DNA of 64,000 bases from Dehalococcoidia bacterium. Lineage in GTDB: Bacteria; Chloroflexota; Dehalococcoidia; Plut-88900. The notes below the pieces were generated by a model. It saw nothing but the letters and a program-made list of their open reading frames with translations. It searched no databases and had not been told where the DNA came from. Position numbers and translations under genes: made by a program. Every line of letters begins with the position of its first letter. Position 1 is the first letter of the stretch. This document shows positions 8,850 to 47,300 of the stretch, in pieces. The stretch lies in assembly GCA_965249275.1 (NCBI GenBank), contig CBDFLQ010000007.1:512001-576000 (forward strand), in the 5' to 3' direction.

Positions 8850-9097
8850 ATACCCTCTCCCTGTCCCCTCGTCTCCCATTTGTCCTGTCATTCCGAGGCT
8901 CCGCGAGAAATCTGGAGGGCGTCCCCCCATCCGTCATTCCGGCCGCCGAGAGCCGGAATACATTCCTGGAGGTGGGGCCGCTCACCCTGAGCACCGTCGA
9001 AGGGTCGAGCGAGGGGTGGCCCCGCATCGTCAAATCGTAGTGGTCGTCCCCAGACGGTCACACCACCCCCTAACCTCCGATTTGCCCCTGTCATTCC
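8850..9097. repeat. Composite REP-like palindrome cluster (BIME-like)
   Basis: cctgtcattccgaggctccgcgagaaatct (8884), ccgtcattccggc..gccggaat (8931), ccgctcaccctgagcaccgtcgaaggg (8978); related units recur at 10154 and 10930-11125. Confidence 0.7.
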
Positions 9098-10153
9098 TGT
9101 AAGTGTTAGGTAATTCGTTGACAGATTGGTATAAGAAGCCAACACCAATCTGGAGGCGAAAATGCGAGACAACAGCAAGGACCTCACCCTTGAAAGGAAC
9201 TACATTCAAAAGTGGCGGTTCCTCATCCATGAGTATCAACTGGTCAAGGCCAGGAAGCATCCCCGCTTCCGCTTTGCCCAGGACTTCTATGCCTTCCACG
9301 GCACTACATGTCAGACCTTTGCCAAGTACTACAACCGGTTCCTCCTCTCCCCCTCCGACGAAGCCTTCTTCCCCCGTAAACGGGGCCCCAATTGGAAGAG
9401 CCGCCGTACCCTGCCCTACATCGAGCAGAAGGTTCTCACCGAACGGCTCAACGGTACCAATCGCTACGAGATATATGCCATACTCAAGCCCATCCTCAAA
9501 CAGCACACTCCTAAGCCCTCTACCATCTACGCCATCACCAGACGCCACGGTGTTAATAGGCTCACTAAGCCGATGCAGCAGTCCAAGCGCAAGATCATCA
9601 AGACCCGGGCAGGGGAGCTGGGGCACCTGGACAGCCACCACCTCAGCCGGGACCTCCTGGTAGACTCCAAGCGCCGTTACTATCTGGTCGCCCTCATTGA
9701 CGCCTGCACCCGCTTGGCCTGGGCCGAAGTGGTCGGAGACATCAAGAGCCTCTCTGTGATGTTCGCAACCCTGAAATCCATCAACTTCCTTAACGCGGAG
9801 TACGGCATCCAATTCGAGGCTATCCTCACCGACAATGGCCCTGAGATGGCCTCGCCCAGGAACATCGAGGGCCACCCCATGGAACGGATGCTCAATGAGC
9901 TGGGCATCAAGCACCGCTACACACGCCCTTATAGGCCCCAGACCAACGGGAAGATAGAGCGGTTCTGGAGAACCCTGAACGAGGACCTGCTGGAGGGGAC
10001 CACCTTCGAGTCGGTGGCAGAACTGCGGGACGAACTGCAGCAATATCTGCTCTACTACAATACCCAGAGACCCCACCAGGCAATGGACGGAAAGACCCCT
10101 TTGGAGACCCTTCAATCTCTCTAATTCTGTCAACGAATCATCTGACATCTACA
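9098..10153 (+). mobile_element. IS481-family insertion sequence (1056 bp)
   Basis: Ends 5'-TGT...ACA-3'; TIRs tgtaagtgttaggtaattcgttgacaga / tgtagatgtcagatgattcgttgacaga (rc); 5-bp target duplication attcc (9093-9097, 10154-10158). Confidence 0.92.
9162..10124 (+). CDS. IS481-family DDE transposase (integrase core)
   Basis: GELGHLD, IDACTRLAW, TDNGPE, TRPYRPQTNGKIERFWRTL, YYNTQRPHQAMDGKTP. Confidence 0.95.
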   Translation: MRDNSKDLTLERNYIQKWRFLIHEYQLVKARKHPRFRFAQDFYAFHGTTCQTFAKYYNRFLLSPSDEAFFPRKRGPNWKSRRTLPYIEQKVLTERLNGTNRYEIYAILKPILKQHTPKPSTIYAITRRHGVNRLTKPMQQSKRKIIKTRAGELGHLDSHHLSRDLLVDSKRRYYLVALIDACTRLAWAEVVGDIKSLSVMFATLKSINFLNAEYGIQFEAILTDNGPEMASPRNIEGHPMERMLNELGIKHRYTRPYRPQTNGKIERFWRTLNEDLLEGTTFESVAELRDELQQYLLYYNTQRPHQAMDGKTPLETLQSL

Positions 10154-10224
10154 ATTCCGAGGCTCCGCGAGGAATCTGGGGCGGGCGTCCAGTCCCCCTC
10201 TCCCCACTTTGTGACACCAACCCC

Positions 10225-10254
10225 TTGACCAAACTGGAACGCCTGTACTATCCT
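10225..10254 (+). promoter_or_regulatory. Sigma70 promoter of ncRNA copy 1, with an overlapping LexA-like box
   Basis: TTGACC-N18-TATCCT; GAAC-gcct-GTAC lies in the spacer; the same arrangement is conserved in copy 2. Confidence 0.6.
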
Positions 10255-10259
10255 TCTCC

Positions 10260-10840
10260 ACGTCTGGCCAGTCACCCACCCTAAACCCAAGGAGGAACCA
10301 AAACCCAGGGGGAACCCCAGCCCCGGCCCCCGAGGACTCAACGTCCCAGCCTATCCCGCTAGAGCGGTCCACACCGCTCCTCGGCTCAAGCGAAAGCCGC
10401 CATCTCCTCACCTAAAGGCCCCGGCTCACCCTTCCCCCACCACCCAGGCGATGGAAGGTCCATAGACTATACCCGGCACGTCCATCAAAGGACCCCTGCC
10501 GATTCAACGCTTCCCGTCATCGGATGCGTTTACACCGGCCTATTGCATGCCGGTTTGCCGGATCGGTCAACCGACCCCCGGATTAGCAGGGCACTCGTGT
10601 CCTTGTTTGTCCCGCCGTCTCCATCATCCGTCTACCCGACTGATGCACAGAGACGCCGGTCTGAAAGTCCGCCTCAGGTGGTATCTTCCCCGTCAGCGGT
10701 CCGGTCATGTGCCGCTGCCGGAGGGATCGGCCCCACACAACCTTGACCACAGCCGACAACATGTGGGGATAAGCCAGACCGGTGCCGACAGCTCGGCCAC
10801 AACCCCCGGCCTGGATTCTAGTCTCGGACCTTCCATCGCC
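10260..10840 (+). ncRNA. Large structured non-coding RNA of unrecognised class, copy 1 (~580 nt)
   Basis: 15-bp closing helix 10447-10461/10826-10840, many internal hairpins, compensatory changes versus the copy at 44185-44767, no reading frame conserved between copies. Confidence 0.7.
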
Positions 10841-10924
10841 AACTCCCCCCCACCCACACAAACCAAAACCGAGGTTTCCCATCCACAACTGAATAATTCC
10901 CCTACCCACTGCATGAGCCCCTTG

Positions 10925-11250
10925 CGCATCCGTCATCGCCGAGAAATCGGGCGCACGAAGTACGGCCTTTCTACTCCTGGGGGTGGGGCATTCCGCTCAC
11001 CCTGTCACAGATCCGATAAGGCGGGAGCCGAGTCGAAGGGTCTCAATAGCGGAATGGGCGGGGTGTCCCGGCCCCCCGCCCCCGTTGCCCCTGTCATCCC
11101 GAGGCTCCACGAGGGATCTGGGGGGCGGCGTCCTCTCCCTTTTCCTTTCATGGGCCGTAGCTACGCTGACGTATGAGAGGCCCAGCGCCGTAGGCTCGCT
11201 GAGAAGGGTCTAAGACTCGCCGAGGAGGATGAGGGTGTTACCCCTGCCAC
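10925..11250. repeat. Composite REP-like palindrome cluster
   Basis: ccgctcaccctg...gagccgagtcgaaggg (10994-11040), cctgtcatcccgaggctccacgagggatct (11090), gccgtaggctcgc / ctcgccgaggagg units shared with 8850-9097 and 815-846. Confidence 0.65.
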
Positions 11251-24619: not shown

Positions 24620-25783
24620 CTAGTTCACGACCAACTCATGGGGCACATGTGTAATCACCTCAACGCCGTCCTCATGAATTATCGACTGCTCTCCCAGGGA
24701 CATGGTCAGCCCCGATTCGCTGTCCACGAGGATCATGTGGGTGAAGAAGGTCATGTTGGGTTCCAGCACTAGCGGGTTATCGCCCACTATCATGGGTTGC
24801 TCCATCCAGGAGGGCGCCCACGTTGCACCCATAGTGTAGCCACATGCTTTCAGGAATGCGTGGCCGTATCCGTGCCTTGTGTAAGCATCAGCATGAGCCT
24901 TGAATACGTCTCTGACGGTATTACCGGGCCTCAGGGTCGCCTGGACGGAGGTCAGGGCATCAAGGCAGGCATCGTGCATGCGGCGGTGTCGGTCATCGAC
25001 TTTCGGCCCGGTGACCACGGCCGCCATGTTGGCGGCATGATAGTGGTGATATCCGCAGGCGATCTCATAGGTGACCTGGTCGTTCTCACTCACCGTGCCC
25101 CGACCCGTGGCATAGCGCACCAGGAGGGCCTTGTCGCCGGAGCCCACGGGCCAGTGGCTGGCAGGAGGATCTCCCCCCGCTTTCCATATGATGCTGTGCA
25201 TCTCGGCGAGGATATCGCCTTCATAGGTCCCGGCCCGAGTGAGCTCGATCCCCTTGGCCATCGCCTGATCTATGATCTTTCCGGCCTCTCGAATGTATTC
25301 GAGTTCCTTTGGACTCTTTACCACTCTCTTCAGCCTGATCATGTCCGAGGCGTCTACCAGCTCACAATAGTCTCCTACCGCGGCGGACAAGTCCCGGCCC
25401 ATCTTGCTGGTGAGGCCGTAGGTGTCGTGCTGGACACCGATCCGCTTGCCCTTCAGGTTGAACCTTTCCAGCACCTCCCGAACCGAATTGAATGGAGAGT
25501 TACCTAAACTGTCCACCCAGAGATGCACGTCGTCACACACCGAGGAATATTCGATGCTGGGCACATCCGCAGACCGGGTGATGTGTGTAAGCTCTCCGTT
25601 CACACCAATGTACATGGCGTGAAAAATGACGAAGCCCTGGGTGTCGAGCCCGCAGAGCCAGTACATGTCCTCAATCTTGAAAAGCAGCATCCCTTCGAGG
25701 CCCTGCTTGGACAGCGCTGCCCTGACTCGGGCCTGGCGTTCCGCGAACTCTTCCCTGGTGAAGTAAATCGTAGGTTCCGGCAT
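24620..25783 (-). CDS. M24 family protein (ectoine hydrolase DoeA/creatinase-like)
   Basis: FTREEFAERQ, VKSPKELEYIREA, EI..GY.HYHAA, CGYTMGA. Confidence 0.88.
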   Translation of the reverse strand: MPEPTIYFTREEFAERQARVRAALSKQGLEGMLLFKIEDMYWLCGLDTQGFVIFHAMYIGVNGELTHITRSADVPSIEYSSVCDDVHLWVDSLGNSPFNSVREVLERFNLKGKRIGVQHDTYGLTSKMGRDLSAAVGDYCELVDASDMIRLKRVVKSPKELEYIREAGKIIDQAMAKGIELTRAGTYEGDILAEMHSIIWKAGGDPPASHWPVGSGDKALLVRYATGRGTVSENDQVTYEIACGYHHYHAANMAAVVTGPKVDDRHRRMHDACLDALTSVQATLRPGNTVRDVFKAHADAYTRHGYGHAFLKACGYTMGATWAPSWMEQPMIVGDNPLVLEPNMTFFTHMILVDSESGLTMSLGEQSIIHEDGVEVITHVPHELVVN

Positions 25784-25881
25784 GTTCTCCCCCTATGGAA
25801 CGGCTCCCCGAATCATACGCCGCCACGCTGGACTGTCAATCGCCTTTCACGCGCCAATTAAGCTGAACAGACTTGTGCTGC

Positions 25882-27045
25882 TTAGTTCACGATCAACTCG
25901 TGAGGCACGTGTGTAATGACCTCAACTCCGTCTTCTTGGACTATGATCTGCTCTCCGAGAGACATGGTCAGCCTCGACTCCCGATCTACCAGGATCATGT
26001 GGGTAAAGAAGGTCATGTTAGGTTCGATGACGTGGGGGTTATTTCTTAGAATCAGCGGCTGCTCCATCCATGATGGAGACCAGGTAGCCCCCATGGTGTA
26101 GCCGCAGGCGTTTAGCAGCGCATGTCCATACCCATGCTCGGTGAATGCTTTTACGTGGGCTTCAAACACATCACCAACGGTGTTGCCGGGCCTCAGTGCT
26201 CCCTGCACGCCTTCCAACGCCGCCAGACAAGCTTCGTGCATCCTGCGGTGCCGATCATCGACATTCGGGCCGGTGACCACGGCAGTCATGTTGGCCGCGT
26301 GATAGTGCCGGTAGCCGCAGCCAATCTCGTATGTTACCTGGTCGTTTTCTCCAATCGTGCCCCGGCCGGTGGCGTAGCGCACCAGCATCGCCTTCTTGCC
26401 AGAACCAACGGGCCAATGGGCCGCCGGTGGGTCGCCCCCCGACCTCAATACGATGCCGTACAGCTCAGCCCAAACATCGCCCTCGTACACCCCGGCCTTG
26501 GTCATATCAATGGCCTTGGCCATCACCTGGTCCATAATCTTTCCGGCTTGCCGGATGTATTCAAGCTCCTGCGGGCTCTTCACAACCCTCATCAGGCGGA
26601 TCATGTCCGAGGCATCAACCAGCTCGCAGTAGCCGCCGACCGCCGCGGCCAATTCCTGTCCCATCCTGCTGGAGAGGCCGTAGGTGTCGTGCTGAACACC
26701 GATACGTTTGCCCTTCACGTTGAATCTCTCCAGCACCTCCATCACCGCGTTCATTGGAGAATTATCCAAACTGTCCACCCAGAGGTGCACGTCGTCACAC
26801 ACCGAGGAATATTCGATGCTGGGTACGTCGGCGGAGCGGGTGATGTGGGTCAGTTCTCCGTTTATCCCTATGTACATGGCGTGAAAGATTTTCCAGCCCT
26901 GGGTGTCGAGGCCGCTGAGCCAGTACATGTCTTCAATCTTGAACAGCAGCATCCCCTCCAGACCCTGCTTGGACAGTGCTGCCCTGACTCGGGCCTGGCG
27001 TTCGGCGAACTCTTCTAGGGTGAAGTAAATGGTTGGTCCCGGCAT
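25882..27045 (-). CDS. M24 family protein, tandem duplicate of 24620-25783
   Basis: Same 387-aa length from MPGPTIYF and near-collinear high identity with the neighbour. Confidence 0.88.
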   Translation of the reverse strand: MPGPTIYFTLEEFAERQARVRAALSKQGLEGMLLFKIEDMYWLSGLDTQGWKIFHAMYIGINGELTHITRSADVPSIEYSSVCDDVHLWVDSLDNSPMNAVMEVLERFNVKGKRIGVQHDTYGLSSRMGQELAAAVGGYCELVDASDMIRLMRVVKSPQELEYIRQAGKIMDQVMAKAIDMTKAGVYEGDVWAELYGIVLRSGGDPPAAHWPVGSGKKAMLVRYATGRGTIGENDQVTYEIGCGYRHYHAANMTAVVTGPNVDDRHRRMHEACLAALEGVQGALRPGNTVGDVFEAHVKAFTEHGYGHALLNACGYTMGATWSPSWMEQPLILRNNPHVIEPNMTFFTHMILVDRESRLTMSLGEQIIVQEDGVEVITHVPHELIVN

Positions 27046-28787: not shown

Positions 28788-28887
28788 GCTTCACTCTTTC
28801 GAAGGGTGAATTTCATAGGCGCCCATCATATCACCCAGCCTGCCAGTTCATTCGACCATATTCCTAATTCGGAGTACACTCCGCTCT

Positions 28888-30234
28888 ATGTCGGTCGTCT
28901 CCAAACTCCCCCTCGCGGGTCGGCTCACCTTCTTCTACGGCTGGCGCATCGTAGCCCTCGGCTTGTTACTCAACCTGATGACCGCGGGCCTGAGCTCCTC
29001 CGCCTTCTCCGTTTTCGTCAAGCCCATGGGCGACGATCTCGGCTGGTCCCGGGCTTCCATCGTACTAGCCGTCACTATAGCAACACTGGCCGCTGCGGTA
29101 TCCGGCCATTTCCTCGGGTTGGCCCTGGACAAGAAACACGGGGCTCGGCTTCTCACCACGGGCGGCATGCTGACAATCGGGATCAGCACCGTATTCATTG
29201 GCCAGGTGTATCAGAGCTGGCATCTCTATAGTCTCTTCTTCATCGCAGGAGCCGTCGGTCTCGCCGCATACCCGGGCCTCATAACCCCCACCATAGTCTC
29301 CAAGTGGTTCGTTCGTCGGCGGGGCATGGCCATTTCCTTTGCGAGTATGGGTCTGCCTTCCAGTGGATTCATCTTGAGCCCATATGCCAACTTACTCATT
29401 GAACATCTTGGCTGGCGGGACGCCTGGATTGTCCTTGGGCTGACGGCCCTGGCCGTTACGGTCCCAGCCTGTGCCCTATTCATGCGCCGCCGCCCCGAGG
29501 ACATCGGCCTCCGGCCCGACGGCGATGACCCTGCAGCCCCACGAGGCGCCGGTGAAATGATGCCCGTAGTTCCCGACGAGCATTCCTGGACCATCCCACA
29601 GGCCATTCGCACTCGGGCATTCTGGCTCATGCTCATCTCCAGCAGCCTCGGGATGTTTTGCTTTATCGGTGTCCTGATCAACTTCTTTGCTTTTGCCTCC
29701 GACGCCTCTATCGGATTTACCTCTGGTCAAGCAGGGTGGGCGTTCGCAACTTTCTCGTTCATTTCCCTTGCTGCCAAGGTCCCGTGGGCCTACCTCGCCG
29801 ACCGCCTCGATATCCGGGCGACTACTGCCTTCACCTATGCAGTGCCCGCCATAGCAATGGCCATCCTGATAAATGCCGACTCATTCTGGATGCTCGTTTT
29901 GTGGGGTCTCATATACGGAACGGGTGCATCGGGGATATCTCTACTGCCTTCCTTCGCATGGGGGTCATACTTCGGAAGGACCTTCCTCGGCTCCATAAGG
30001 GGCATAACATCCCCCATGACCTTCTTCGGTCAGGCCACAGGCCCTCTATTTGCCGCCTTGCTCTATGACAAACTAGGAAGCTACCAGGTTTCCTTCATAG
30101 TCTTCATCGGACTATTCCTGCTCTCCGCCGTTCTAATGCTCTTCGCCCGGAAGCCCGTGCCGCCCACCCCCGCCCCAACACCCGAAAACCAGCGCCTCTT
30201 CCCCGAAGACGCAGCCCGGAACATGGCCGGTTAA
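28888..30234 (+). CDS. MFS transporter
   Basis: FFYGWRIV, SKWFVRRRG.A, RRPEDIGLRPDG, YFGR..LGSI.G; TCGACC-17-TACACT promoter 7 nt before ATG. Confidence 0.92.
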   Translation: MSVVSKLPLAGRLTFFYGWRIVALGLLLNLMTAGLSSSAFSVFVKPMGDDLGWSRASIVLAVTIATLAAAVSGHFLGLALDKKHGARLLTTGGMLTIGISTVFIGQVYQSWHLYSLFFIAGAVGLAAYPGLITPTIVSKWFVRRRGMAISFASMGLPSSGFILSPYANLLIEHLGWRDAWIVLGLTALAVTVPACALFMRRRPEDIGLRPDGDDPAAPRGAGEMMPVVPDEHSWTIPQAIRTRAFWLMLISSSLGMFCFIGVLINFFAFASDASIGFTSGQAGWAFATFSFISLAAKVPWAYLADRLDIRATTAFTYAVPAIAMAILINADSFWMLVLWGLIYGTGASGISLLPSFAWGSYFGRTFLGSIRGITSPMTFFGQATGPLFAALLYDKLGSYQVSFIVFIGLFLLSAVLMLFARKPVPPTPAPTPENQRLFPEDAARNMAG

Positions 30235-30295
30235 CCTTGGAGGATCACACTCTGCAGATTCGACCCAACCCCTGATTCGCTGTACACTGGCGCAT

Positions 30296-31642
30296 ATGCC
30301 CCTCCCCCCCAAGCTCTCTCCGGCAGGTCGGCTCACATTCTTCTACGGTTGGCGAATCGTAGCCCTCGGTTACTTACTCAACCTCATGACCGCGGGGCTG
30401 AGCTCCTCGACTTTCTCCGTCTTCGTAAAGCCCATGGGTGACGACCTAGGCTGGTCCCGGTCATCCACGATACTCGCCACGACCACCGGGACTGTGGCGG
30501 CGGCCGTATTCGGGCATTTTCTCGGCACAGTGCTGGACAAGAGGCACGGGGCCCGGCTTCTAACCACCGGCGGTATGATCACAATCGGCGTCTGCGCCAT
30601 CCTGTTCGGCTTCGTCCAGGAGACCTGGCACCTTTATGGGCTTTTCTTCATCGGCGGCGCCGTCGGACTCTACGCCTACCCCGGCCTCCTGACGCCAACC
30701 ATAGTCTCCAAGTGGTTCGTACGTCGGCGGGGCATGGCCATCTCCTTGGCCAGCATGGGTCTGCCATCTAGCGGCATTCTGCTTAGCCCTTATGCCAATT
30801 TACTCATAGCCCATCTGGGCTGGCGCGACGCCTGGATGGTCCTCGGCATAACGGCCCTGGTTGTCACGGTCCCCTTGTGCGCCCTATTTATGCGCCGACG
30901 CCCCGAGGACATAGGTCTCCGCACCGACAATGACGAACCGGCTTCACGCTTACGGTCCGGCAAGTTTGCCCCAGTACTGCCTGACGAACACTCCTGGACC
31001 ATCCGCCAGGCAATCGCCACTCGTTCGTTCTGGCTCATCCTCATCTCCAGCAGCCTGGGGATGATGTGCTTCATGGGCATACTGATCAATTTCTTTGCCT
31101 TCGCCACCGACACCGATGCCGGCTTCACAACAAACCAGGCATCCGTAGCCTTCGCCGCATTCTCCGGCTTTTCCCTCATAGGCAAGCTCCCGTGGGCCTA
31201 CCTCTCCGACCGCATAGACATTCGAATCTCCACCGTTTTCACGTATACGGTTCCCGCTGTTGGTATCGCCCTTCTCATCAACGCCGATGCATTCTGGATG
31301 CTTTTGCTCTGGGGTATCGTTTTCGGGACCGGCATCTCCGGTATTGCCCCTCTCCCAGCCTTAGCCTGGGGTTCATATTACGGTCGTACTTTCCTGGGCT
31401 CCATAAGAGGCGTGACATCTCCCATCGCTTTCCTAGCCCAGGCCTCGGGCCCCCTCTTTGCGGCCTTCCTGTACGACAATTTGGAAAGTTACCAAGCCTC
31501 CTTCTCCGTTTTCATCGGCCTGTTCCTTTTCTCAGGCTGCCTCATGCTCTTCGCCCGAAAGCCCGTGCCCCCCTCCCCCCTCCCAAAACCCGAGAGCCAA
31601 CGTCTCTTCCCTCAGGAAGTTGTCCATGACCTTGTTGGCTAG
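30296..31642 (+). CDS. MFS transporter, tandem duplicate of 28888-30234
   Basis: Same length (448 aa), collinear high identity, same promoter layout. Confidence 0.92.
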   Translation: MPLPPKLSPAGRLTFFYGWRIVALGYLLNLMTAGLSSSTFSVFVKPMGDDLGWSRSSTILATTTGTVAAAVFGHFLGTVLDKRHGARLLTTGGMITIGVCAILFGFVQETWHLYGLFFIGGAVGLYAYPGLLTPTIVSKWFVRRRGMAISLASMGLPSSGILLSPYANLLIAHLGWRDAWMVLGITALVVTVPLCALFMRRRPEDIGLRTDNDEPASRLRSGKFAPVLPDEHSWTIRQAIATRSFWLILISSSLGMMCFMGILINFFAFATDTDAGFTTNQASVAFAAFSGFSLIGKLPWAYLSDRIDIRISTVFTYTVPAVGIALLINADAFWMLLLWGIVFGTGISGIAPLPALAWGSYYGRTFLGSIRGVTSPIAFLAQASGPLFAAFLYDNLESYQASFSVFIGLFLFSGCLMLFARKPVPPSPLPKPESQRLFPQEVVHDLVG

Positions 31643-31645
31643 CCC

Positions 31646-32890
31646 ATGAAACGCCGCCCCTTCTTCGGTTGGTGGGTTGTCCTTACAGGATTCATTGACC
31701 AATTCACTGCCGCGGGATTCGGCGTCTACGCCTTCAGCGTCCTCGTCAAGCCCATGTCCGATGACCCGGACCTGGGGTGGTCTTCTACCCAACTTGTCTG
31801 GGGCATCACCATCGGCATCGTCATAGCCACCAGCACCGGGCCTCTCTTCGGCCTATTCCTGGACAAGCGGCACGGTCCCCGACTCCTCATGCTCGCGTTT
31901 GGGCTGACCGGGGCCCTGGGCCTCGCACTCACAGGCCGGGTGGAGCATCTGTGGCAATACTATCTGGTCTTCGGGGTCGTCTCTGCCTTCTTCATCCACT
32001 CCACCATCTTCCTGGTCGTCCCGACTGTCGTTTCCAAATGGTTCATCCGAAAACGAGGTCAAGCCCTGATCTTCTCTACAATGGGCAGGCCAGCGAGCGG
32101 CCTGCTGATGCTCCCTCTTACCCAGGTCCTTATGTCCGCTGTGGGCTGGCGCACTACGTGGCTGATCCTCGGCATTGCCGTCGCGGCCATAGTAATCCCG
32201 CTAAATGCGCTCTTCCTACACCGCCGCCCCGAGGACCGCGGCCTCCTCCCCGACGGTGATCCCGAGCCAATCCGCCTCCCCGACTCCTCTGAACTAATCG
32301 AGTCGAGCTGGACCCTCGGTCTCGCACTCCGCACCCGGGCCTTCTGGATGGTCCTTCTAGCCACCAACCTCAGCGGCTCGGGCATCATTGGCGTACTGGT
32401 CAACCAGGTCGCCTACCTGAAGGAGTTTTACAGCGATGGGTGGGCCGTCGGGGGAGCAACGCTGGTCACGGCATCCAGCCTGTTCGGCAGGTTTGGCTGG
32501 CTGCTCGTCGCCGACCGCCTCAACCCTCGCTACTCCGCCGCCATCAGCTTCCTTCTGTCCGCCGCTGGGATGCTATTCTTCCTCTACGCCGACAACGTGG
32601 TCATGATGGTGCTTTGGGGATTATCATTTGGTGTCGGCATCGGGGGCATGGACCCCATGACATCACTGCTGTGGGCGCGGTTCTTTGGCCGTCGATTCAT
32701 AGGTTCGATTAGGGGATTCGTGACCATGACTAACATGGTATCCATAGCAGGTTCGCCTTTGCTGGTGGCTGCCATCTTTGAAGCTACCGGCACCTATAGG
32801 CCGGCCTTTTTGATTCTCCTCGCTGCGTTTCTCGCGTCCGCAGTATTTATCCTCGTGTCCCGGCCCCCGAAGCGCCCCTCCCGAGAATAA
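31646..32890 (+). CDS. MFS transporter (more distant paralogue)
   Basis: FFGWWVV, SKWFIRKRG, RRPEDRGLLPDG, FFGRRFIGSIRG. Confidence 0.9.
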   Translation: MKRRPFFGWWVVLTGFIDQFTAAGFGVYAFSVLVKPMSDDPDLGWSSTQLVWGITIGIVIATSTGPLFGLFLDKRHGPRLLMLAFGLTGALGLALTGRVEHLWQYYLVFGVVSAFFIHSTIFLVVPTVVSKWFIRKRGQALIFSTMGRPASGLLMLPLTQVLMSAVGWRTTWLILGIAVAAIVIPLNALFLHRRPEDRGLLPDGDPEPIRLPDSSELIESSWTLGLALRTRAFWMVLLATNLSGSGIIGVLVNQVAYLKEFYSDGWAVGGATLVTASSLFGRFGWLLVADRLNPRYSAAISFLLSAAGMLFFLYADNVVMMVLWGLSFGVGIGGMDPMTSLLWARFFGRRFIGSIRGFVTMTNMVSIAGSPLLVAAIFEATGTYRPAFLILLAAFLASAVFILVSRPPKRPSRE

Positions 32891-43481: not shown

Positions 43482-43967
43482 CTATTCTTCCTCTTCTTCC
43501 GGGGGCAGCTTATGCAACCTGTCCATGCTCTCCAGGAGGTCGGTATAAAGAGAGCCATGGATGTGTCCGACCTCATGCTCCAGGGCCTGGGCGAGCAGGT
43601 CCGTTGCCTTGATCCTCACCTCTTTCCCGTCAAGACCCTGCCCCTTCGCCAGGACAGTTTCCGCCCTCTTGATATCCCCCCTGTAGCCCGGAATGCTCAG
43701 GCAGCCCTCGCTTACGTCACGTTCACCGGTCTTCTTCACGATCTCCGGGTTGATAAGCGTGATAACGGGCTCATCCGGCACCTCAATGACGATGACTCTT
43801 AGGGAAACACCCACTTGTGGAGCTGCAATGCCTACGCCGTTGTACTCATGCATACTTTCAAGCATGTTCTCCGCCAGCTTCTTGATATACGCGTCTATGG
43901 CGCGGACACGTTTGGCCCTCTGGCGGAGTATCGGGTCGGGGGTGACTCTAAGCGGGAGTACGGCCAA
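43482..43967 (-). CDS. def: Peptide deformylase
   Basis: GVGIAAPQVG, EGCLSIPG, EHEVGH. Confidence 0.95.
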   Translation of the reverse strand: MAVLPLRVTPDPILRQRAKRVRAIDAYIKKLAENMLESMHEYNGVGIAAPQVGVSLRVIVIEVPDEPVITLINPEIVKKTGERDVSEGCLSIPGYRGDIKRAETVLAKGQGLDGKEVRIKATDLLAQALEHEVGHIHGSLYTDLLESMDRLHKLPPEEEEE

Positions 43968-44184
43968 TGGGAGTCTCTACGGCGTAACGAAATATCAAGT
44001 TTGATTCAGGCACCGGCCCATTCTATGAAATGGCCTTAGACCTGTAAAGGTCGTGTACTCGTTCGGTAGATTAGTGACACACCGGAGTTTCATTCAGTCC
44101 TCCTGAGGCGGACCCGCCCAAGGCGGATGTTCCATCTTCGATTGTGGGGTTTCGGTTTCCGTTCTGTCTGTTAGGTTTTGGGAA

Positions 44185-44767
44185 GGCGATGAAAGGTCCG
44201 TGACTAGGATCCAGGCCGGAGTTTGTTGCCGAGCCGTCAGCGCCGGGCTGGCTTATCCCCACATGTTCTCGGCTGTGGTCAGGGTTGTGTGGGGCCGATC
44301 CTTCCGGCAGCGGCACTTGACCGGACCGCTGACGGGGAACATGCCGCCTGAGGCGGACTTTCAGAACCGGCGTCCCGGTGCATCGGTCGTAGAGACGGAT
44401 GGCGGGGACGGCGGGACAAACAAGGCACGAGGGCCTTGCTAGACCGGGGGTCGGTTGACCTACCCGGGAAACCGGCGCGCAATGGGCCGGAGTAAACGCA
44501 TCCGGTAATGGGAAGCGTTGAATCGGCAGGGGCGTCGTAGGACGGGGCCTGCCGCGTATAGTCTGTGGACCTTCCATCGCCTGGGCGCTGGGGAAGGGAT
44601 AGCCGGGGCCTTTGTATGAGGAGATGGCGGCGTTTGCTTGAGCCGTGGGGCGGCATGGGCCGCCCTTTGGGATGGGCTTAGACGTTGAGTCCTCGGGGCC
44701 GGGGCTGGTGTTCCCCCTGGGTTGTGTGTTCCTCCTTTGGGTTTAGGGTGAGTGGCTGGCCAGCCGG
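44185..44767 (-). ncRNA. Large structured non-coding RNA of unrecognised class, copy 2 (~580 nt)
   Basis: Reverse-complement homologue of 10260-10840; closing helix 44567-44581/44185-44199 with one G-U pair on the minus strand. Confidence 0.7.
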
Positions 44768-44772
44768 GGGTG

Positions 44773-44802
44773 AATATAGTACATGTGTGCAAGTCTGGTC
44801 AA
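44773..44802 (-). promoter_or_regulatory. Sigma70 promoter of ncRNA copy 2, with an overlapping LexA-like box
   Basis: TTGACC-N18-TATATT on the minus strand; GCAC-acat-GTAC in the spacer. Confidence 0.55.
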
Positions 44803-44840
44803 GGGGTTCGTGTCACTTTTGGGAGGGCAAGAGGCTCATG

Positions 44841-47300
44841 TCACAGCAGAGTCACCGGGTCCACATCCACCGACCACCCCTCCCCCAACCCCACCCGTTC
44901 CAAAAGCCGGGCGGGCTCGTCGCATCTGATCAGGACATGCCAGCGGTACCGGCCCTTCAGCCTGGGCACAAAACACGGGACCGGACCCAGAACGTCGGTC
45001 TGAGGCAGTCCAAGCCGGTCTCGCTCCTTTCGCAGCCGGACCGCAACCTTCTGGGATTCTGCCTCGGCCTTGGCTGGATCGAATTGTGAGTGGACCAGCC
45101 TCGTTAGCCGGGCGTAGGGGGGATAGCGATTTTGCCTTCGATAGCTGGTCTCCTGCCGGTAGAATCCGCCGTAGTCGTGGTTAGCGACAGCCCGGATTGC
45201 ATAGTGATCGGGGTTGAAAGTCTGCACCACCACCCTCCCTCCCCCCGGGCCCCGGCCCGCCCGCCCCGCCACCTGGGTCAAAAGCTGGAACACCCGCTCC
45301 CCCGCCCTGAAATCGGGGAAGTTGATTCCCACGTCGGCGCTCATCACACCTACCAGTGTCACTTGCGGCAGGTGCAATCCCTGGGCCACCATCTGAGTCC
45401 CAATAAGGATGTCGATCTGACCCGTCTGCAGCTTCTCCAATACTTCCTCATGCTCTGACGGCTTGGAGATCGAGTCCCGGTCCCATCGGAATGTCCTGGC
45501 ATTGGGAAATCTCAACCGCATCTCCTCTTCAAGCCGCTGTGTGCCCGTGCCCAAGTACCCGAGGTCCGGGCTGCCGCAGCCTCGGCACATCTCGGGTTTC
45601 CTGATGTTATAGCCGCAGTGGTGGCACACAAGTTTGCCCTTGGCACCGTGATAAATGAGCGCCACCTCGCAGCGCCGACACCTGACCACCAGCCCGCACT
45701 CTCGGCAGTGCACAGACGTGGCGAATCCTCTCCTGTTTATGAAGAGGATCACCTGCTCGCCCGCGTCCAGGGCGTTGGCCATCTCATTCCGCAAAAGGCG
45801 GCTGAACATGTCGCGGTTGCCGCTTCTAAGCTCCTGTTTCATGTCCACCACGTCTACCCTCGCCATTCCTCCAGCAGCTTCCTCCCCCGCTCCCGATACC
45901 CTGGGCCCGACCGTTATGCGTCTCGGCAGCTCCAGGTATTCCAGTTCTCCTATCGACGCTTTGTACGACGTCGTGACGTCGGGCGTCGCGCTTCCGAGAA
46001 TCACCACCGCCCCCGACAGCTTCCCCAGTTCCAGGGCCGCGTCCCTGGCGTGGTAGCGGGGCGCGGGCTCCGACTGCTTGTAGGAGCTGTCGTGCTCCTC
46101 ATCAAGCACTATCAGGCCGAGGTCCGGCTGCGGCGAAAACAATGCACTTCTCGGGCCTATCACCACCCCAAATTCGCCGTCTCGAATGCGCCACCATTCG
46201 TCGAACTTCTCCCCCGCTTTCAATCGGCTGTGCAAGACGGCGACCTGTCCCGGAAATCGGCTGCTGAATCTCTGAATCGTTTGCGGGGTGAGCGATATCT
46301 CCGGCACTAGCACGATGCCCCGGCGACCCAACTCCAGGGTGCGCTCCAGCGCCCTTAGGTAAAGCTCGGTCTTGCCGCTTCCGGTAACCCCCCGCAGCAG
46401 GAACGCATTCCCCTCTCCACCCACCGCCGACTTTTCCAAAGCCTCCTTGATCGGCGCCCAGGCCCGCTGCTGGTCTTCCGTAAGCGAGGGCGCGTCCATC
46501 CGCTCGTAGTGCCTCGACGCCAGGGGGTCCCTGATGACTCGCACCTTTCGGGTTCCGACGACACCTCTCTCCTTCAAAATCTTGATGGCGCCGGGAGATA
46601 TGCTGCGCTCTCGGAGCTCCGACGCGCTAACCCCTTCCGGCATCTCGAACAGCGCATCCAGCAGTGCTCGCTGGTTGACTGCATTTTTCTTCAAACGCGC
46701 CTGTACAACCGCCTCTTCCGCGCCTACTTTCAGGAAAAACTGTGTCTCGTACTTAGGGGAAACGACGGGTCTCGGCCACTCCGACTCCCGTCTCACCACC
46801 CCCGACCTCGCCAGTTTTTCCACCCTCACCTGTGCCCTGGGCCCCAGCTTCCTCTTCAACCCGACAATTTCCGTGCGCCCCACGTCTGCCAACGCGTCCA
46901 GCACCTTCTTCTCCGATTCCGACGGGACGAAGGAGTGAGGCCAAGGCGCTGGCTTAAGCGAATAAAAAGTCCGCACCTTGCGTCGGAAGCCATGAGGCAG
47001 CATCAATGCAGCAGCCTCGAAGAGGGAACAGAGGTATCGTCGGCTTATCCATTGGGCGAGGGAGAGCTGCCGGGCGCCGAGAATCGGAACAGGGTCGACA
47101 AGCCCGATTATTTCCCTCGTTTCCTCGAAGTTGGAGGAATTGGTAAGTTGGAAGACGATGCCCTGCAGACGGCGCGGCCCGAAGGGGACCCAAACGGAAT
47201 GACCGGGTCTCAGGTCCAGGTGGGAAGGAACGGAATAGGTGAAAGTCCGGTCGGGTTCCAGGGGTGCGTCGACGGCAATCTCAGCGAATGGCATGGCCAA
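44841..47300 (-). CDS. priA: Primosomal protein N' (PriA helicase)
   Basis: GVTGSGKTE, LVPEISLTPQ, DEEHD.SYKQ, GSATP, double Zn-finger CxxC, GTQMVA.G, RAGR. Confidence 0.97.
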   Translation of the reverse strand: MAMPFAEIAVDAPLEPDRTFTYSVPSHLDLRPGHSVWVPFGPRRLQGIVFQLTNSSNFEETREIIGLVDPVPILGARQLSLAQWISRRYLCSLFEAAALMLPHGFRRKVRTFYSLKPAPWPHSFVPSESEKKVLDALADVGRTEIVGLKRKLGPRAQVRVEKLARSGVVRRESEWPRPVVSPKYETQFFLKVGAEEAVVQARLKKNAVNQRALLDALFEMPEGVSASELRERSISPGAIKILKERGVVGTRKVRVIRDPLASRHYERMDAPSLTEDQQRAWAPIKEALEKSAVGGEGNAFLLRGVTGSGKTELYLRALERTLELGRRGIVLVPEISLTPQTIQRFSSRFPGQVAVLHSRLKAGEKFDEWWRIRDGEFGVVIGPRSALFSPQPDLGLIVLDEEHDSSYKQSEPAPRYHARDAALELGKLSGAVVILGSATPDVTTSYKASIGELEYLELPRRITVGPRVSGAGEEAAGGMARVDVVDMKQELRSGNRDMFSRLLRNEMANALDAGEQVILFINRRGFATSVHCRECGLVVRCRRCEVALIYHGAKGKLVCHHCGYNIRKPEMCRGCGSPDLGYLGTGTQRLEEEMRLRFPNARTFRWDRDSISKPSEHEEVLEKLQTGQIDILIGTQMVAQGLHLPQVTLVGVMSADVGINFPDFRAGERVFQLLTQVAGRAGRGPGGGRVVVQTFNPDHYAIRAVANHDYGGFYRQETSYRRQNRYPPYARLTRLVHSQFDPAKAEAESQKVAVRLRKERDRLGLPQTDVLGPVPCFVPRLKGRYRWHVLIRCDEPARLLERVGLGEGWSVDVDPVTLL

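Follow-up and report, generated by a model that had tools for sequence, protein, structure and literature searches.

The window, defined here as the whole 64,000-nucleotide stretch of DNA that was analysed, contains two copies of a cassette composed of a promoter and a predicted structured RNA. Copy 2 lies between priA and def and reads toward def. Copy 1 lies beside an IS481-like element in a block of REP-like repeats. The parts of both copies and their surroundings are listed in Table 1. The ends of copy 2 were placed using the terminal-repeat consensus of the family, partly by eye; the genome of one congener (G003) differs across 44052-44838.

Table 1. Features of the two RNA cassettes and their surroundings, in window positions.
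Feature	Position	Strand	Evidence or remark
Copy 2, whole element	44054-44838	-	Extends from the left to the right terminal repeat and includes promoter, RNA gene, tail, and REP-like hairpins
Copy 2, diverged 5' terminal inverted repeat (TGAGCC...AAAAGTGACAC), GTGACAC box at its end	44810-44838	-	By-eye alignment with family consensus TGATCCCGTTCACATAGAGGGGTGACAT
Copy 2, element promoter P1, TTGACC-18 nt-TATATT	44773-44802	-	Promoter scan, 10/12
Copy 2, RNA 5' domain	44582-44766	-	Consensus fold of 34 members and single-sequence fold, same helices
Copy 2, AAGGAGG, invariant, single-stranded	44731-44737	-	Within RNA 5' domain, consensus fold
Copy 2, closing helix 5' strand (GGCGAUGGAAGGUCC)	44567-44581	-	Pairs with 44185-44199
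Copy 2, central domain, subfamily A, variable, heavily paired	44200-44566	-	Clustering, pair counts, orthologue identity
Copy 2, closing helix 3' strand (GGACCUUUCAUCGCC)	44185-44199	-	3' strand present in 55/55 members
Copy 2, C/A-rich tail, then two REP-like CCGCC-N3-GGCGG hairpins	44083-44184	-	Tail comparison across members
Copy 2, 3' terminal inverted repeat (GGTGTGTCACTAATCTACCGAACGAGTACA)	44054-44082	-	Exact match to CTACCGAACGAGTACA; family consensus
Host def promoter, TTTACA-17 nt-TAGAAT	44020-44048	-	Promoter scan, 10/12; starts 5 nt past element end
def	43482-43967	-	Pfam
priA	44841-47300	-	Pfam
Copy 1: GTGACAC box, promoter, RNA to closing helix	10207-10840	+	Alignment, promoter scan
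Copy 1 promoter, TTGACC-18-TATCCT	10225-10254	+	
Copy 1 closing helix (3' limit of RNA)	10826-10840	+	
Lineage-specific block: REP-like repeats, IS481-like element, copy 1	8863-11225	.	2.36 kb
IS481-like insertion sequence, 1056 bp	9098-10153	+	Terminal repeat TGTAAGTGTTAGGTAATTCGTTGACAGA; duplication ATTCC
IS481-like transposase, rve/rve_3 domains	9162-10124	+	

The two copies form an inverted pair. A repeat search matched 44185-44816 (minus strand) with 10211-10840 (plus strand) in seven collinear segments of 75-91% complementarity, and the second, inverted RNA cassette that the original prediction placed between def and priA is real. In the pairwise alignment the homology starts at GTGACAC(C/G)AACCCCTTGACC, which puts the promoter inside the homologous region, and stops right past CTTCCATCGCC, the 3' strand of the closing helix. 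Both limits are as predicted. The span of 44185-44816 first given for copy 2 is also real, and it is too short, the tail, the REP-like hairpins, and the 3' terminal repeat having been left out. Similarly, the 8-bp repeat agtgacac (44073-44080)/gtgtcact (44810-44817) said to bracket copy 2 is present and is the inner GTGACAY box of an imperfect terminal inverted repeat of about 28 bp. The copy 2 region contains 2 promoter-like sites, compared with 0.3 expected from shuffled sequence. Transcription is predicted, from the position of the -10 box, to start near 44766.

The source genome (G000, 87% complete) was compared with eight congeners, for nine genomes of the genus in all. The copy 2 site is occupied in G000, G001, G002, and G005, with a short variant in G004. 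G003 has no element there and keeps the def promoter. Its counterpart of 44052-44838 consists of 267 unrelated bases, in which a similar promoter and a 3' hairpin, though diverged, can be recognised. The empty site and target duplication that had been proposed for inspection in relatives were not seen at this locus, G003 lacking the element without offering a clean empty site. Judged by this occupancy, copy 2 is an old, syntenic insertion kept in most congeners examined, not a recent one.

Copy 1 has no recognisable terminal repeats. It is followed by REP clusters and terminator-like sites. The flanks of the block that contains it are 22-93 nt apart in 8 of 8 congeners, so that the block is absent from all of them. 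The junctions were read in G002, G005, and G003, and the absence concerns the composite block.

The RNA family has 55 members in the 2.9-Mb genome (nhmmer), and a sister family with the same promoter type contributes 11 further RNAs. Together these 66 cassettes, each roughly 0.65-0.8 kb, make up about 1.5% of the genome. Thirteen copies are full-length, with 83-100% identity, and stand beside dozens of partial relatives, which excludes a chance origin of the copy pair. The suspicion, raised by two copies in 64 kb, that there would be more genome-wide is therefore borne out, and the opposite case, in which only two copies exist at conserved syntenic positions, does not hold.

Dozens of copies per genome are present in all eight congeners. 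A BLAST search with the 5' domain matched 8 of 8 genomes of the same genus, 0 of 3 from the family's other genera, and 0 of 29 from the class's other families. With stricter filters, a covariance model (R1) matched 4 of 4 sampled genomes of the genus and none of 146 from elsewhere in the class. A pattern scan of genome contigs gave at least 75 loci, all of those listed being in six chromosomes named 'MAG: Dehalococcoidia bacterium'; the scan is uninformative on taxa beyond that name. The exact 17-nt left end of the element occurs in 83 metagenome stretches. None of the 80 examined continues with GTGACAY and TTGAC, none has a 5'-domain match, and these occurrences are most likely chance. Among the genomes searched, the RNA family was found in one genus only.

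The predicted RNA is about 590 nt long (range 490-727) and has about 28 helices. All members possess a sigma70-type promoter, a conserved 5' domain in which AAGGAGG is invariant, and an extended closing helix around a central domain. The TTGAC/T of P1 is present in 53 of 54 members. The 5' domain is composed of a start hairpin and the nested helices GGGG/CCCC, GGCC/GGCC, and GAGGA/UCCUC. Its consensus fold, built from 34 members, has 23 pairs, and compensatory changes occur in five of these. A pairing of UCUCCUC, or of CCUCC in the tail, with AAGGAGG was considered and rejected, as the consensus fold pairs UCCUC with GAGGA of CGAGGACUC and leaves AAGGAGG mostly single-stranded. The closing helix is 15-17 bp long and reads GGTCC/GGACC or GACGC/GCGTC according to subfamily, which is a compensatory switch. 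The central domain is 280-510 nt in length across the family and can be sorted into 11 clusters among 54 members of the genome, or 16 among 110 pooled members. The first 50 nucleotides of the tails average 42% A, 40.5% C, 9% G, and 8.6% T over all members. Rho-dependent termination at this C-rich, G-poor tail was considered and dropped because no Rho RNA-binding domain was found in the 87%-complete G000.

Subfamily A, to which copy 2 belongs, has 168 pairs. Of the alignment cells at these positions, 95.8% are paired, compared with 31-44% when the partners are slid. Seventeen pairs have changed on both sides, compared with 5.7 +/- 1.7 in shuffles (0 of 500 reaching the observed number) and 3-6 when slid; this covariation is modest, and kin sequences can outdo shuffles even without structure. 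The single-sequence fold has a z of -4.05, with 0 of 100 shuffles folding equally well. These comparisons argue for a common RNA fold in which a 5' domain with exposed AAGGAGG is followed by a closing helix around a variable central domain.

Selection on the RNA was assessed in 11 orthologous pairs from G000 and G002. Identity is 95.6% in the central domain, 96.4% in the closing strand, 85.2% in the tail, and 85.0% in the upstream 60 nt. In the flanking ORFs it is 96.2, 98.6, and 89.1% at codon positions 1, 2, and 3. These values indicate purifying selection on the orthologous central domains, and conservation of each variant between species suggests that the RNAs do something that matters.

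The elements end in imperfect terminal inverted repeats of about 28 bp, with TGATCCCGTTCACATAG-N4-GTGACAY on either side. The left-end (n = 16) and right-end (n = 24) consensus sequences match at 19 of 30 positions. Both ends are present in 16 of 54 members; the 3' end is unrecognisable in 30 of 54 and the 5' end in 38 of 54. Members with both ends are 739-902 bp long. The end motifs occur in G000 almost exclusively at RNA members. Target duplications of 5 bp were scored in 15 two-ended members, two entries of which are one locus on duplicate contigs. Ten are perfect (5/5) and 12 match at 4/5 or better, compared with a mean of 1.4 members at 4/5 or better and a maximum of 7 in 10,000 shuffled pairings. 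One of the 39 G002 elements checked against G000 has a clean empty site there; the others are shared, swapped, or complex. In G000 the two flanks of this 874-nt element (L091) join directly at CCCCCAAAA|TTGAGCC, with no element between them.

Two explanations had been proposed for the repeated cassette, a multi-copy ncRNA family maintained by selection and a non-autonomous mobile RNA cassette, and both apply. Selection is indicated by the covariation of the closing helix, the paired changes, and the greater identity of orthologous central domains than of flanking third codon positions. Mobility is supported, at the level of sequence, by the terminal-repeat architecture, the 5-bp duplications, the empty site, and the lineage-specific block of copy 1.

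Taken jointly, we think it rather probable that these are non-autonomous cut-or-copy elements of 0.74-0.9 kb without a protein gene, whose cargo is a sigma70-promoted structured RNA, and that the host retains this RNA as what would be a trans-acting scaffold. A DDE transposase acting in trans would move the elements. An IS481-family enzyme would be the best candidate, given the likeness of the ends and a duplication of equal length (5 bp). Once inserted, many copies would be stripped of their ends and stay on as resident RNA genes. Copy 2 would be an old resident of this kind, between priA and the def promoter. The constant 5' domain may be the platform on which a common partner binds, and a function specific to each variant may come from the central domain.

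The landing site of the elements lies at host promoters. The TTG of a -35 hexamer is found exactly 5 nt past the 3' end in 16 of the 24 members having that end, and other offsets occur at most once each. Members with a 3' end are followed by a gene or tRNA whose start lies about 60-120 nt farther downstream. The def promoter stands likewise, 5 nt beyond the end of copy 2. As read from these positions, insertion is in a single orientation, exactly 5 bp upstream of the host -35 hexamer. This is a natural example of promoter-targeted DNA insertion, and it bears on how transposases read promoter architecture.

This placement is also a point in favor of a rather unlikely alternative, that the element is a mobile promoter with a structured leader acting in cis. 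P1 transcripts would read through into the downstream gene (def at copy 2), and the fold would act on the same transcript, for example in processing, stabilisation, or antitermination. The 16 of 24 elements stand co-oriented upstream of a promoter that serves a real gene or tRNA, the interval from P1 to def contains 0 terminator-like sites where 1.4 are expected, and the closing helix may be likened to a processing stalk. However, 30 of 54 members lack the 3' end and the adjacent promoter, and copy 1, for example, leads into terminator-like sites and REP clusters. The insertion is younger than the host promoters, which are intact. A leader of this type would have no need for 16 or more central domains of 280-510 nt, each of them as conserved between species as first codon positions.

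The IS481-like element beside copy 1 is the nearest candidate source of a transposase for the RNA element. Both have TG... termini and a subterminal TGACA box, the left repeat of the IS481-like element matches the 3' repeat of the RNA element at 21 of 30 positions, and both generate 5-bp duplications. The genome contains 11 full IS481-like copies, 10 of which have matching duplications. The two differ in that the IS481-like element encodes an rve transposase and targets a REP motif (GTCATTCC|GAGG, 10 of 11 copies), whereas the RNA element has no transposase gene and inserts at promoters. The original prediction took this insertion sequence to be unrelated; with such ends and duplications, it may be related. 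An autonomous element with ends identical to these was looked for and not found, the IS481-like element coming nearest, with ends that are only similar. As far as its ends could be placed, a second rve insertion sequence (C7:247981-249211), with a transposase about 29% identical, showed no likeness to the ends of the RNA element.

The RNA element was not placed in the IS481 family, as it has no ORF between its repeats and shares only the end similarity and the length of the duplication. It is also not a MITE in the narrow sense. It is neither miniature in size nor an internal deletion of an insertion sequence, and the RNA gene in its interior is unrelated to the IS481-like element. The IS481-like transposase is present at 82% identity or more only in G000, G002, G003, and G008. 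G001 has it as a pseudogene, the query had no match in G004 at E <= 1e-10, and the relatives in G005, G006, and G007 reach only 28-39% identity. The RNA family is present in all eight congeners, including those in which the IS481-like element is missing or dead.

Other partner genes were searched for in the 87%-complete G000. There were 0 matches to the reverse transcriptase RVT_1 (PF00078) and, with control genomes positive, 0 each to the TnpB zinc ribbon (PF07282), the Y1 transposase (PF01797), and the IS110 DEDD domain (PF01548). The lack of such genes near the two copies, as first noted, extends to this assembly, and the suggestion that a copy might be found linked to a reverse transcriptase, IS110, or TnpB gene is not borne out by it. 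An RNA carried by a retroelement (retron, group II intron, or DGR) was rejected on the RVT_1 result in this 87%-complete assembly and because the homology takes in the promoter upstream of the transcript.

A second alternative, quite unlikely in our judgement, is an RNA that works for the element. It would take part in transposition as a cofactor or regulator, for example by titrating or binding the transposase, by marking the donor, or by helping to locate promoters, and the covariation would reflect selection of master copies for spreading. RNA-guided transposons exist in other families. P1 lies 7 nt inside the left repeat, the usual place of the transposase promoter in insertion sequences, and insertion is unusually precise, with a target unlike that of the only similar insertion sequence of the genome. 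The common target feature is only TTG(AC), however, which is too short to demand a 590-nt RNA, and no RT, TnpB, IS110, or Y1 gene turned up in the 87%-complete G000. Old copies without ends keep a central domain under purifying selection at fixed loci, which a cofactor would not need.

Very improbable is a set of static paralogous RNA genes produced by ordinary duplication and recombination. The terminal repeats would then be protein-binding sites associated with the promoter (a GTGWCAC palindrome), and the matches between flanks would be a by-product of promoter context. GTGACAC and GTGTCAC are indeed one near-palindrome, the same promoter module drives other genes (with a solo copy upstream of groES), the copy 2 site is syntenic in most congeners examined, and recombination swaps modules at fixed loci. 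None of this accounts for perfect 5-bp direct repeats of unrelated sequence at 10 of 15 two-ended members, for an 874-nt insertion with contiguous flanks in a sister genome, or for ends that match over about 28 bp, beyond the 7-bp box.

No conserved reading frame or transposase gene was found inside the element. Gap runs of 1, 2, and 3 nt in the alignment number 50, 33, and 12. Variable columns per codon phase number 68, 79, and 65, with no three-base periodicity. ORFs from the invariant ATG range from 4 to 353 codons, and their frame differs between copies. A protein-coding family with a long structured 5' UTR, read from the ATG inside GGCGATGGAAG through the central domain (ORF 44071-44577, 168 aa), is scarcely credible: the AAGGAGG upstream is invariant and 8 of 13 subfamily-A copies have stop-free frames of 198-218 codons, but long open frames are likely anyway because the strand is T-poor (14.8%), the frame is only 4-24 codons in most subfamilies and shifts between close copies, one- and two-nucleotide indels prevail, substitutions are aperiodic, and AAGGAGG is followed by no start codon.

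A mobile cassette with a host-retained RNA, the reading preferred above, was compared with known systems. Mobile insertion cassettes (MICs, for example MIC231 of Bacillus cereus) have IS-like terminal repeats, a target duplication, and a passenger protein gene, with no transposase of their own. The RNA element resembles them in terminal repeats like those of a resident insertion sequence, target duplication, a passenger gene, and presumed mobilisation in trans. It differs in that its passenger is a promoter-driven structured RNA of about 590 nt and its insertion is orientation-specific, 5 bp upstream of -35 hexamers. Unlike MICs, many of its copies are without ends and yet persist under selection, and the mover is a candidate only.

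Correia elements of Neisseria, ERIC, and RUP are about 100-250 bp long with simple hairpin folds. They are likewise multi-copy, protein-less, and intergenic, with terminal repeats and duplications, and they too can carry promoters and be transcribed into structured RNA. The element described here is larger (0.74-0.9 kb) and, in contrast to these, has about 28 helices, constant-plus-variable modules, compensatory changes, and purifying selection at each locus.

HEARO/omega-RNA (of IscB and TnpB transposons, including ORF-less copies) and IS110 bridge RNAs are structured, multi-copy ncRNAs borne by a transposon beside its end, and in this the RNA described here is alike. It differs in having no Rfam match and no TnpB, IS110, or Y1 gene found in its genome, in ends and a 5-bp duplication that point to a DDE (rve) enzyme, and in being two to three times longer. 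OLE, GOLLD, ROOL, and raiA share the 500-800 nt class, an ornate multi-helix fold, and a promoter of their own. In contrast to these, the RNA has no covariance-model match to them, occurs in 55 + 11 copies per genome instead of one or few, has a transposon-like carrier, and is found in one genus alone among the genomes searched.

The known bacterial non-autonomous transposons carry promoters or protein genes, and the large ornate RNAs known are single-copy orphans. The RNA element unites both, as a cassette that carries only an RNA of about 590 nt under a strong promoter and that lands with base-pair precision before housekeeping promoters. A bolder reading, which we put forward as speculation and do not expect to hold in full, is that of an undescribed RNA system. 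It would be made of modular RNAs of about 0.6 kb, with a constant 5' platform bearing the Shine-Dalgarno-like AAGGAGG and with interchangeable central domains, spread through the genus on promoter-seeking, transposase-less cassettes and then domesticated copy by copy. The RNA might choose promoters or act on the ribosome or RNA polymerase. Such a system would fit neither the usual MITEs nor the usual sRNA families. In bacteria it would correspond to the SINE-like RNA genes that carry a promoter, except that it moves as DNA. The family illustrates how new RNA genes can be scattered over a genome and become fixed. With dozens of paralogues per genome, 16 or more variants, and nine genomes, it also provides a comparative set for the fold and the partner.

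An Rfam scan of the window at gathering thresholds returned two tRNAs only, with no match at either copy. With permissive settings the lowest E at either copy was 2.2, which is chance level, and scans of nine loci of other subfamilies returned only a neighbouring SRP RNA gene. As far as its sources go, a full-text literature search gave nothing on such an element, which is no proof of its being unpublished.

Sequencing runs were examined at copy 2. In DNA runs, 44029-44189 and 44677-44838 are as deep as the RNA body, and there too the element repeat is 20-50 times above its flanks. For a 20-50-fold repeat, DNA carry-over and transcription cannot be told apart by the depth of RNA runs, and only contigs were used. 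Contigs of the RNA libraries are absent from 44029-44189 (tail and right end) and 44677-44838 (first ~90 nt and promoter), although gaps in contig data prove nothing. The RNA body (44189-44649) is covered by contigs of two RNA libraries from one study, sixteen from X19 and four from X20, which is a hint of expression.

The flagged element encodes RNA and is not a protein gene. In the best-supported reading, it belongs to a non-autonomous, MIC-like DNA element that carries a promoter and a large structured RNA gene as cargo. The element would insert 5 bp ahead of the -35 hexamers of host promoters and would often be kept afterwards as a resident RNA gene. The original prediction had left a choice between an ncRNA gene family under selection and a non-autonomous mobile cassette, and this reading holds both, as a mobile cassette with retained RNA genes. 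Copy 2 (44185-44816, minus strand) is best read as a resident of this kind in front of def, and copy 1 (10211-10840, plus strand) as a lineage-specific arrival without recognisable ends.

The two copies align as seven collinear inverted segments of 60-181 nucleotides with 75-91% complementarity. The alignment opens at GTGACAC(C/G)AACCCCTTGACC and closes just past CTTCCATCGCC, and thus spans the promoter. The copy 2 promoter is TTGACC-18-TATATT at 44802-44773 (10 of 12 positions matching in the promoter scan). Promoter-like sites number two in its region, where 0.3 are expected, and terminator-like sites are absent. Pfam confirms the housekeeping genes def and priA on either side. On the Pfam, promoter-scan, and alignment results, the features first described are present in the sequence. 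Elsewhere in the window, direct repeats at 24621-26182 and 28850-32260 (spacing 1262 and 1408/1320-1326 nucleotides, 69-87% identity) suggest tandem paralogous genes in two and three copies.

Coordinates of features in the window and of the second RNA family in the source genome (G000; C5-C7 are contigs)
Feature	Position	Strand	Remark
Insertion sequence adjoining copy 1	9098-10153		1056 bp; IS481-like; rve-domain transposase by Pfam
def	43482-43967	-	Pfam
Copy 2 right end	44054-44082		exact
Copy 2 left end	44810-44838		diverged, TGAGCCTCTTGCC...AAAAGTGACAC
priA	44841-47300	-	Pfam
Second RNA family (outside window)	C6:141653, C5:272102, C6:946490, C5:735584, C7:724387, C7:453333		
Second RNA family, further loci (outside window)	C5:156941, C6:841641, C6:128781, C6:57501, C5:477197		

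The tails of all members follow one order past the closing helix: a C/A-rich stretch (A 42%, C 40.5%, G 9%, T 8.6%), optional REP-like hairpins, and in some an end block. The right-end block, GTGTCACTAA(T/C)CTACCGAACGAGTACA, is present in 24 of 54 members, 16 of which also carry the left end TGATCCCGTTCACATAG about 21 nucleotides upstream of the GTGACAY box. The two end consensuses agree at 19 of 30 positions and have a common layout of TG..C.CGTTC, about 9 nucleotides, then GTGACA. The 8-bp repeat first seen to bracket copy 2 is present, although it is only the inner box of these longer ends. With its exact right end and diverged left end, the copy 2 element is 44054-44838, wider than the homologous 44185-44816 originally delimited. 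This extent agrees with the segment 44052-44838 that is replaced by 267 other bases in G003, one of eight congeners (G001-G008).

More copies had been suspected genome-wide, and the superfamily has 66 members in the G000 assembly (2.9 Mb, 59% G+C, 87% complete), where the window occupies C7:512001-576000. BLAST identified 13 full-length copies at 83-100% identity and many further matches limited to the first ~246 nucleotides. A profile of the 5' part found 71 sites, 55 over most of the profile and 16 over the promoter only. The 3' strand of the closing helix is present in all 55 members, 540-777 nucleotides from the promoter start. The central domains between the helix strands form 11 clusters in G000, and 16 among 110 distinct members pooled over several genomes.

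The closing-helix strands covary among subfamilies, which are groups with different central domains (GGCGATGGAAGGTCC with GGACCTTCCATCGCC, GGCGATGGAAGACGC with GCGTCTTCCATCGCC). The consensus fold of the 5' domain, from 34 sequences, has 23 nested pairs with compensatory changes in five, and leaves the invariant AAGGAGGAA unpaired. In subfamily A (24 RNAs, 168-pair structure), 95.8% of cells form a standard pair, against 31-44% with partners slid and 94.9% in shuffles. Both sides changed in 17 pairs, against 3-6 with partners slid and 5.7 ± 1.7 in shuffles (0 of 500 reached 17), a count that is supportive and not decisive, as related sequences can beat shuffles. Four subfamilies have a common architecture of 164-175 pairs each. 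The fold of copy 2 by itself has an energy of -234.7 kcal/mol (shuffles, -208.0 ± 6.6; z = -4.05), and the closing helix reappears in this fold. No Rfam model matched any member tested.

A protein-coding reading was rejected. Gaps of one, two, and three nucleotides number 50, 33, and 12, and variable columns by phase number 68, 79, and 65, with no three-base periodicity. Read from the invariant ATG in GGCGATGGAAG, the frame stays open for 4-353 codons and shifts among close copies. The RNA strand contains 14.8% T, and the long open frames of some copies are consistent with such a T-poor strand.

Mobility is supported by the insertion sites. Among 15 members with both ends under a strict pattern (two being one locus on duplicate contigs), the 5 nucleotides before the left end and after the right end are identical in 10 and match at four or more positions in 12. 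Random re-pairing of flanks gives a mean of 1.4 cases of the latter kind and a maximum of 7 in 10,000 trials. When 40 loci of the congener G002 were compared with G000, one 874-nucleotide element was absent from G000, where its flanks are contiguous (CCCCCAAAA joined to TTGAGCC). About 95 nucleotides from this site is a gene for a bacterial large SRP RNA (G002 L091 2496-2762, minus strand). For 11 of 39 G002 elements, a single alignment with G000 runs across the element with at least 300 nucleotides on both sides, and these sites are therefore shared. At several other loci the site and the 5' or 3' modules are the same and the central domain differs, or the reverse, which points to exchange of modules through recombination at fixed loci.

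Insertion favours promoters. TTG lies exactly 5 nucleotides past the right end in 16 of the 24 right-ended members, and TT in 19; any other offset has at most one. The hexamers are TTGACA, TTGACC, TTGATA, and similar, with a same-strand gene or tRNA start ~60-120 nucleotides beyond. The TTGAGC at the empty site is part of the target. The def promoter (TTTACA-17-TAGAAT, 44048-44020) begins 5 nucleotides past the copy 2 end and is kept in G003. Copy 1 lies in a 2.36-kb block (8863-11225) of REP-like repeats, an IS481-like element, and the RNA gene. The flanks of this block are only 22-93 nucleotides apart in all eight congeners. Copy 1 differs by 14% or more from all other listed copies, so its source is outside these assemblies.

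The def-priA site was compared in G001-G005. It is occupied in G002 (93% identity over 3.5 kb), G005 (90%), and G001 (5' domain partly missing), and G004 has a short variant with a ~290-nucleotide central domain. The empty site sought among relatives is not a clean one here: G003 lacks the element, but the 267 other bases stand there. These (L041, about 474-742) include a similar promoter (GTGACAT-N7-TTGCTC..TATAAT), an AT-rich stretch of ~180 nucleotides, and, directly before the def -35, a diverged 3' hairpin. A motif within the AT-rich stretch, AACAATCAAAC..GGCACGA..TTTTTAATTGATT, recurs near several G000 elements, and the slot seems to have been reused by another small repeat.

Over 11 orthologous G000-G002 pairs, identity is 95.6% in the central domain, 96.4% in the closing strand, 88.8% in the 5' domain (where swaps at three loci reduce the figure), 87.1% in the promoter, 85.2% in the tail, and 85.0% in the 60 nucleotides upstream. 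Codon positions 1, 2, and 3 of flanking long ORFs are at 96.2%, 98.6%, and 89.1%. In each resident copy, conservation of the central domain is therefore close to that of first codon positions. Selection persists on copies without ends at fixed loci, and at least 16 variants coexist; for these reasons the RNA is favoured as a candidate scaffold acting in trans, in which the 5' platform is constant and the central domains are specific to each variant. Alternatively, it may act in cis on the downstream gene or help the element itself to spread.

Searches for the 5' domain by BLAST and with a covariance model detected the family in all genomes of the genus that were searched, and in none of those searched from elsewhere in the class. 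Part of the element occurs in 20 public sequencing runs. Two of these are metatranscriptome libraries from a single sponge study, whose contigs lie on the RNA body at 44189-44649 (X19, 16 contigs; X20, 4). Transcription is only hinted at, because these are contig data and DNA runs also show a 20-50-fold excess of depth on the element over its flanks.

An IS481-family DDE enzyme is the best candidate mover, given its 5-bp duplications and a left repeat that shares 21 of 30 positions with the right repeat of the RNA element. The case is weak, because the targets differ, the RNA element's end motifs occur almost only at RNA members, and the transposase is patchily distributed. At 82% identity or more it is limited to G000, G002, G003, and G008; G001 has a pseudogene, G004 has no match at E ≤ 1e-10, and G005-G007 have relatives of 28-39% identity instead. 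G000 contains 11 full copies and one partial copy of the IS481-like element. Ten of the 11 have the matching duplication ATTCC inside the REP motif GTCATTCC/GAGG. RT, TnpB, IS110, and Y1 genes were not found in the 87%-complete G000, and the envisaged RNA copy linked to an RT, TnpB, or IS110 gene was not seen there. A metagenome scan with the left end returned nothing related.

Nearly all insertions of the IS481-like element (10 of 11 full G000 copies) are in a single REP-like motif, GTCATTCC/GAGGCTCCGCGAGGAAT, often with an RNA-family promoter a few hundred bases or less downstream. The flanks of the copy at C7:510012 are inverted, as recombination between two copies would leave them. REP-like hairpins of ~22-25 nucleotides (GAAAGTCCGCC-N3-GGCGG..) occur at varying places (for example, window 44090-44136). 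Some lie inside RNA genes, for instance in two 5' domains and in the central domain of subfamily A, and at a hairpin position one copy is short by exactly 22 nucleotides. No Y1/RAYT transposase for these hairpins was found in G000. A solo left end, TGATCCCGTTCACATAGAGGGGTGACATCAACCCC, upstream of groES-groEL (C6:928830, minus strand) is joined directly to the groESL -35 (TTGCGA), and a CIRCE-like inverted repeat, TTAGCACTC-N9-GAGTGCTAA, follows downstream.

The 16 promoter-only sites comprise a second RNA family (11), small phage-like proteins (3), a 60-nucleotide tandem array (1), and one other. The second family (620-845 nucleotides) has the same promoter type and its own closing helix (ATGGAAGGTCC/GGACCTTCCAT), a 5' hairpin (GGCCCGAC..GTCGGCC), and an invariant GGAGTCCCATGAGTCGCA; it is distantly related to the flagged family and looks like a distant sister. 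The array (C7:349002, minus strand) has units of ~60 nucleotides (GGATGCCTGCGGCAATGCGCCGCGGAAGAA..) and no obvious ORF. The three small proteins (C5:2113, minus; C7:110676, plus; C6:411194, plus) are paralogous, with 117-146 amino acids; at one locus the next reading frame resembles a phage terminase large subunit by eye, a hint of prophage-like regions. Contig C4 (9.1 kb) nearly duplicates C7:583-589 kb, with an RNA element whose central domain differs (subfamily D versus C); it represents a genuine duplication or else a strain variant that was co-assembled in the MAG.
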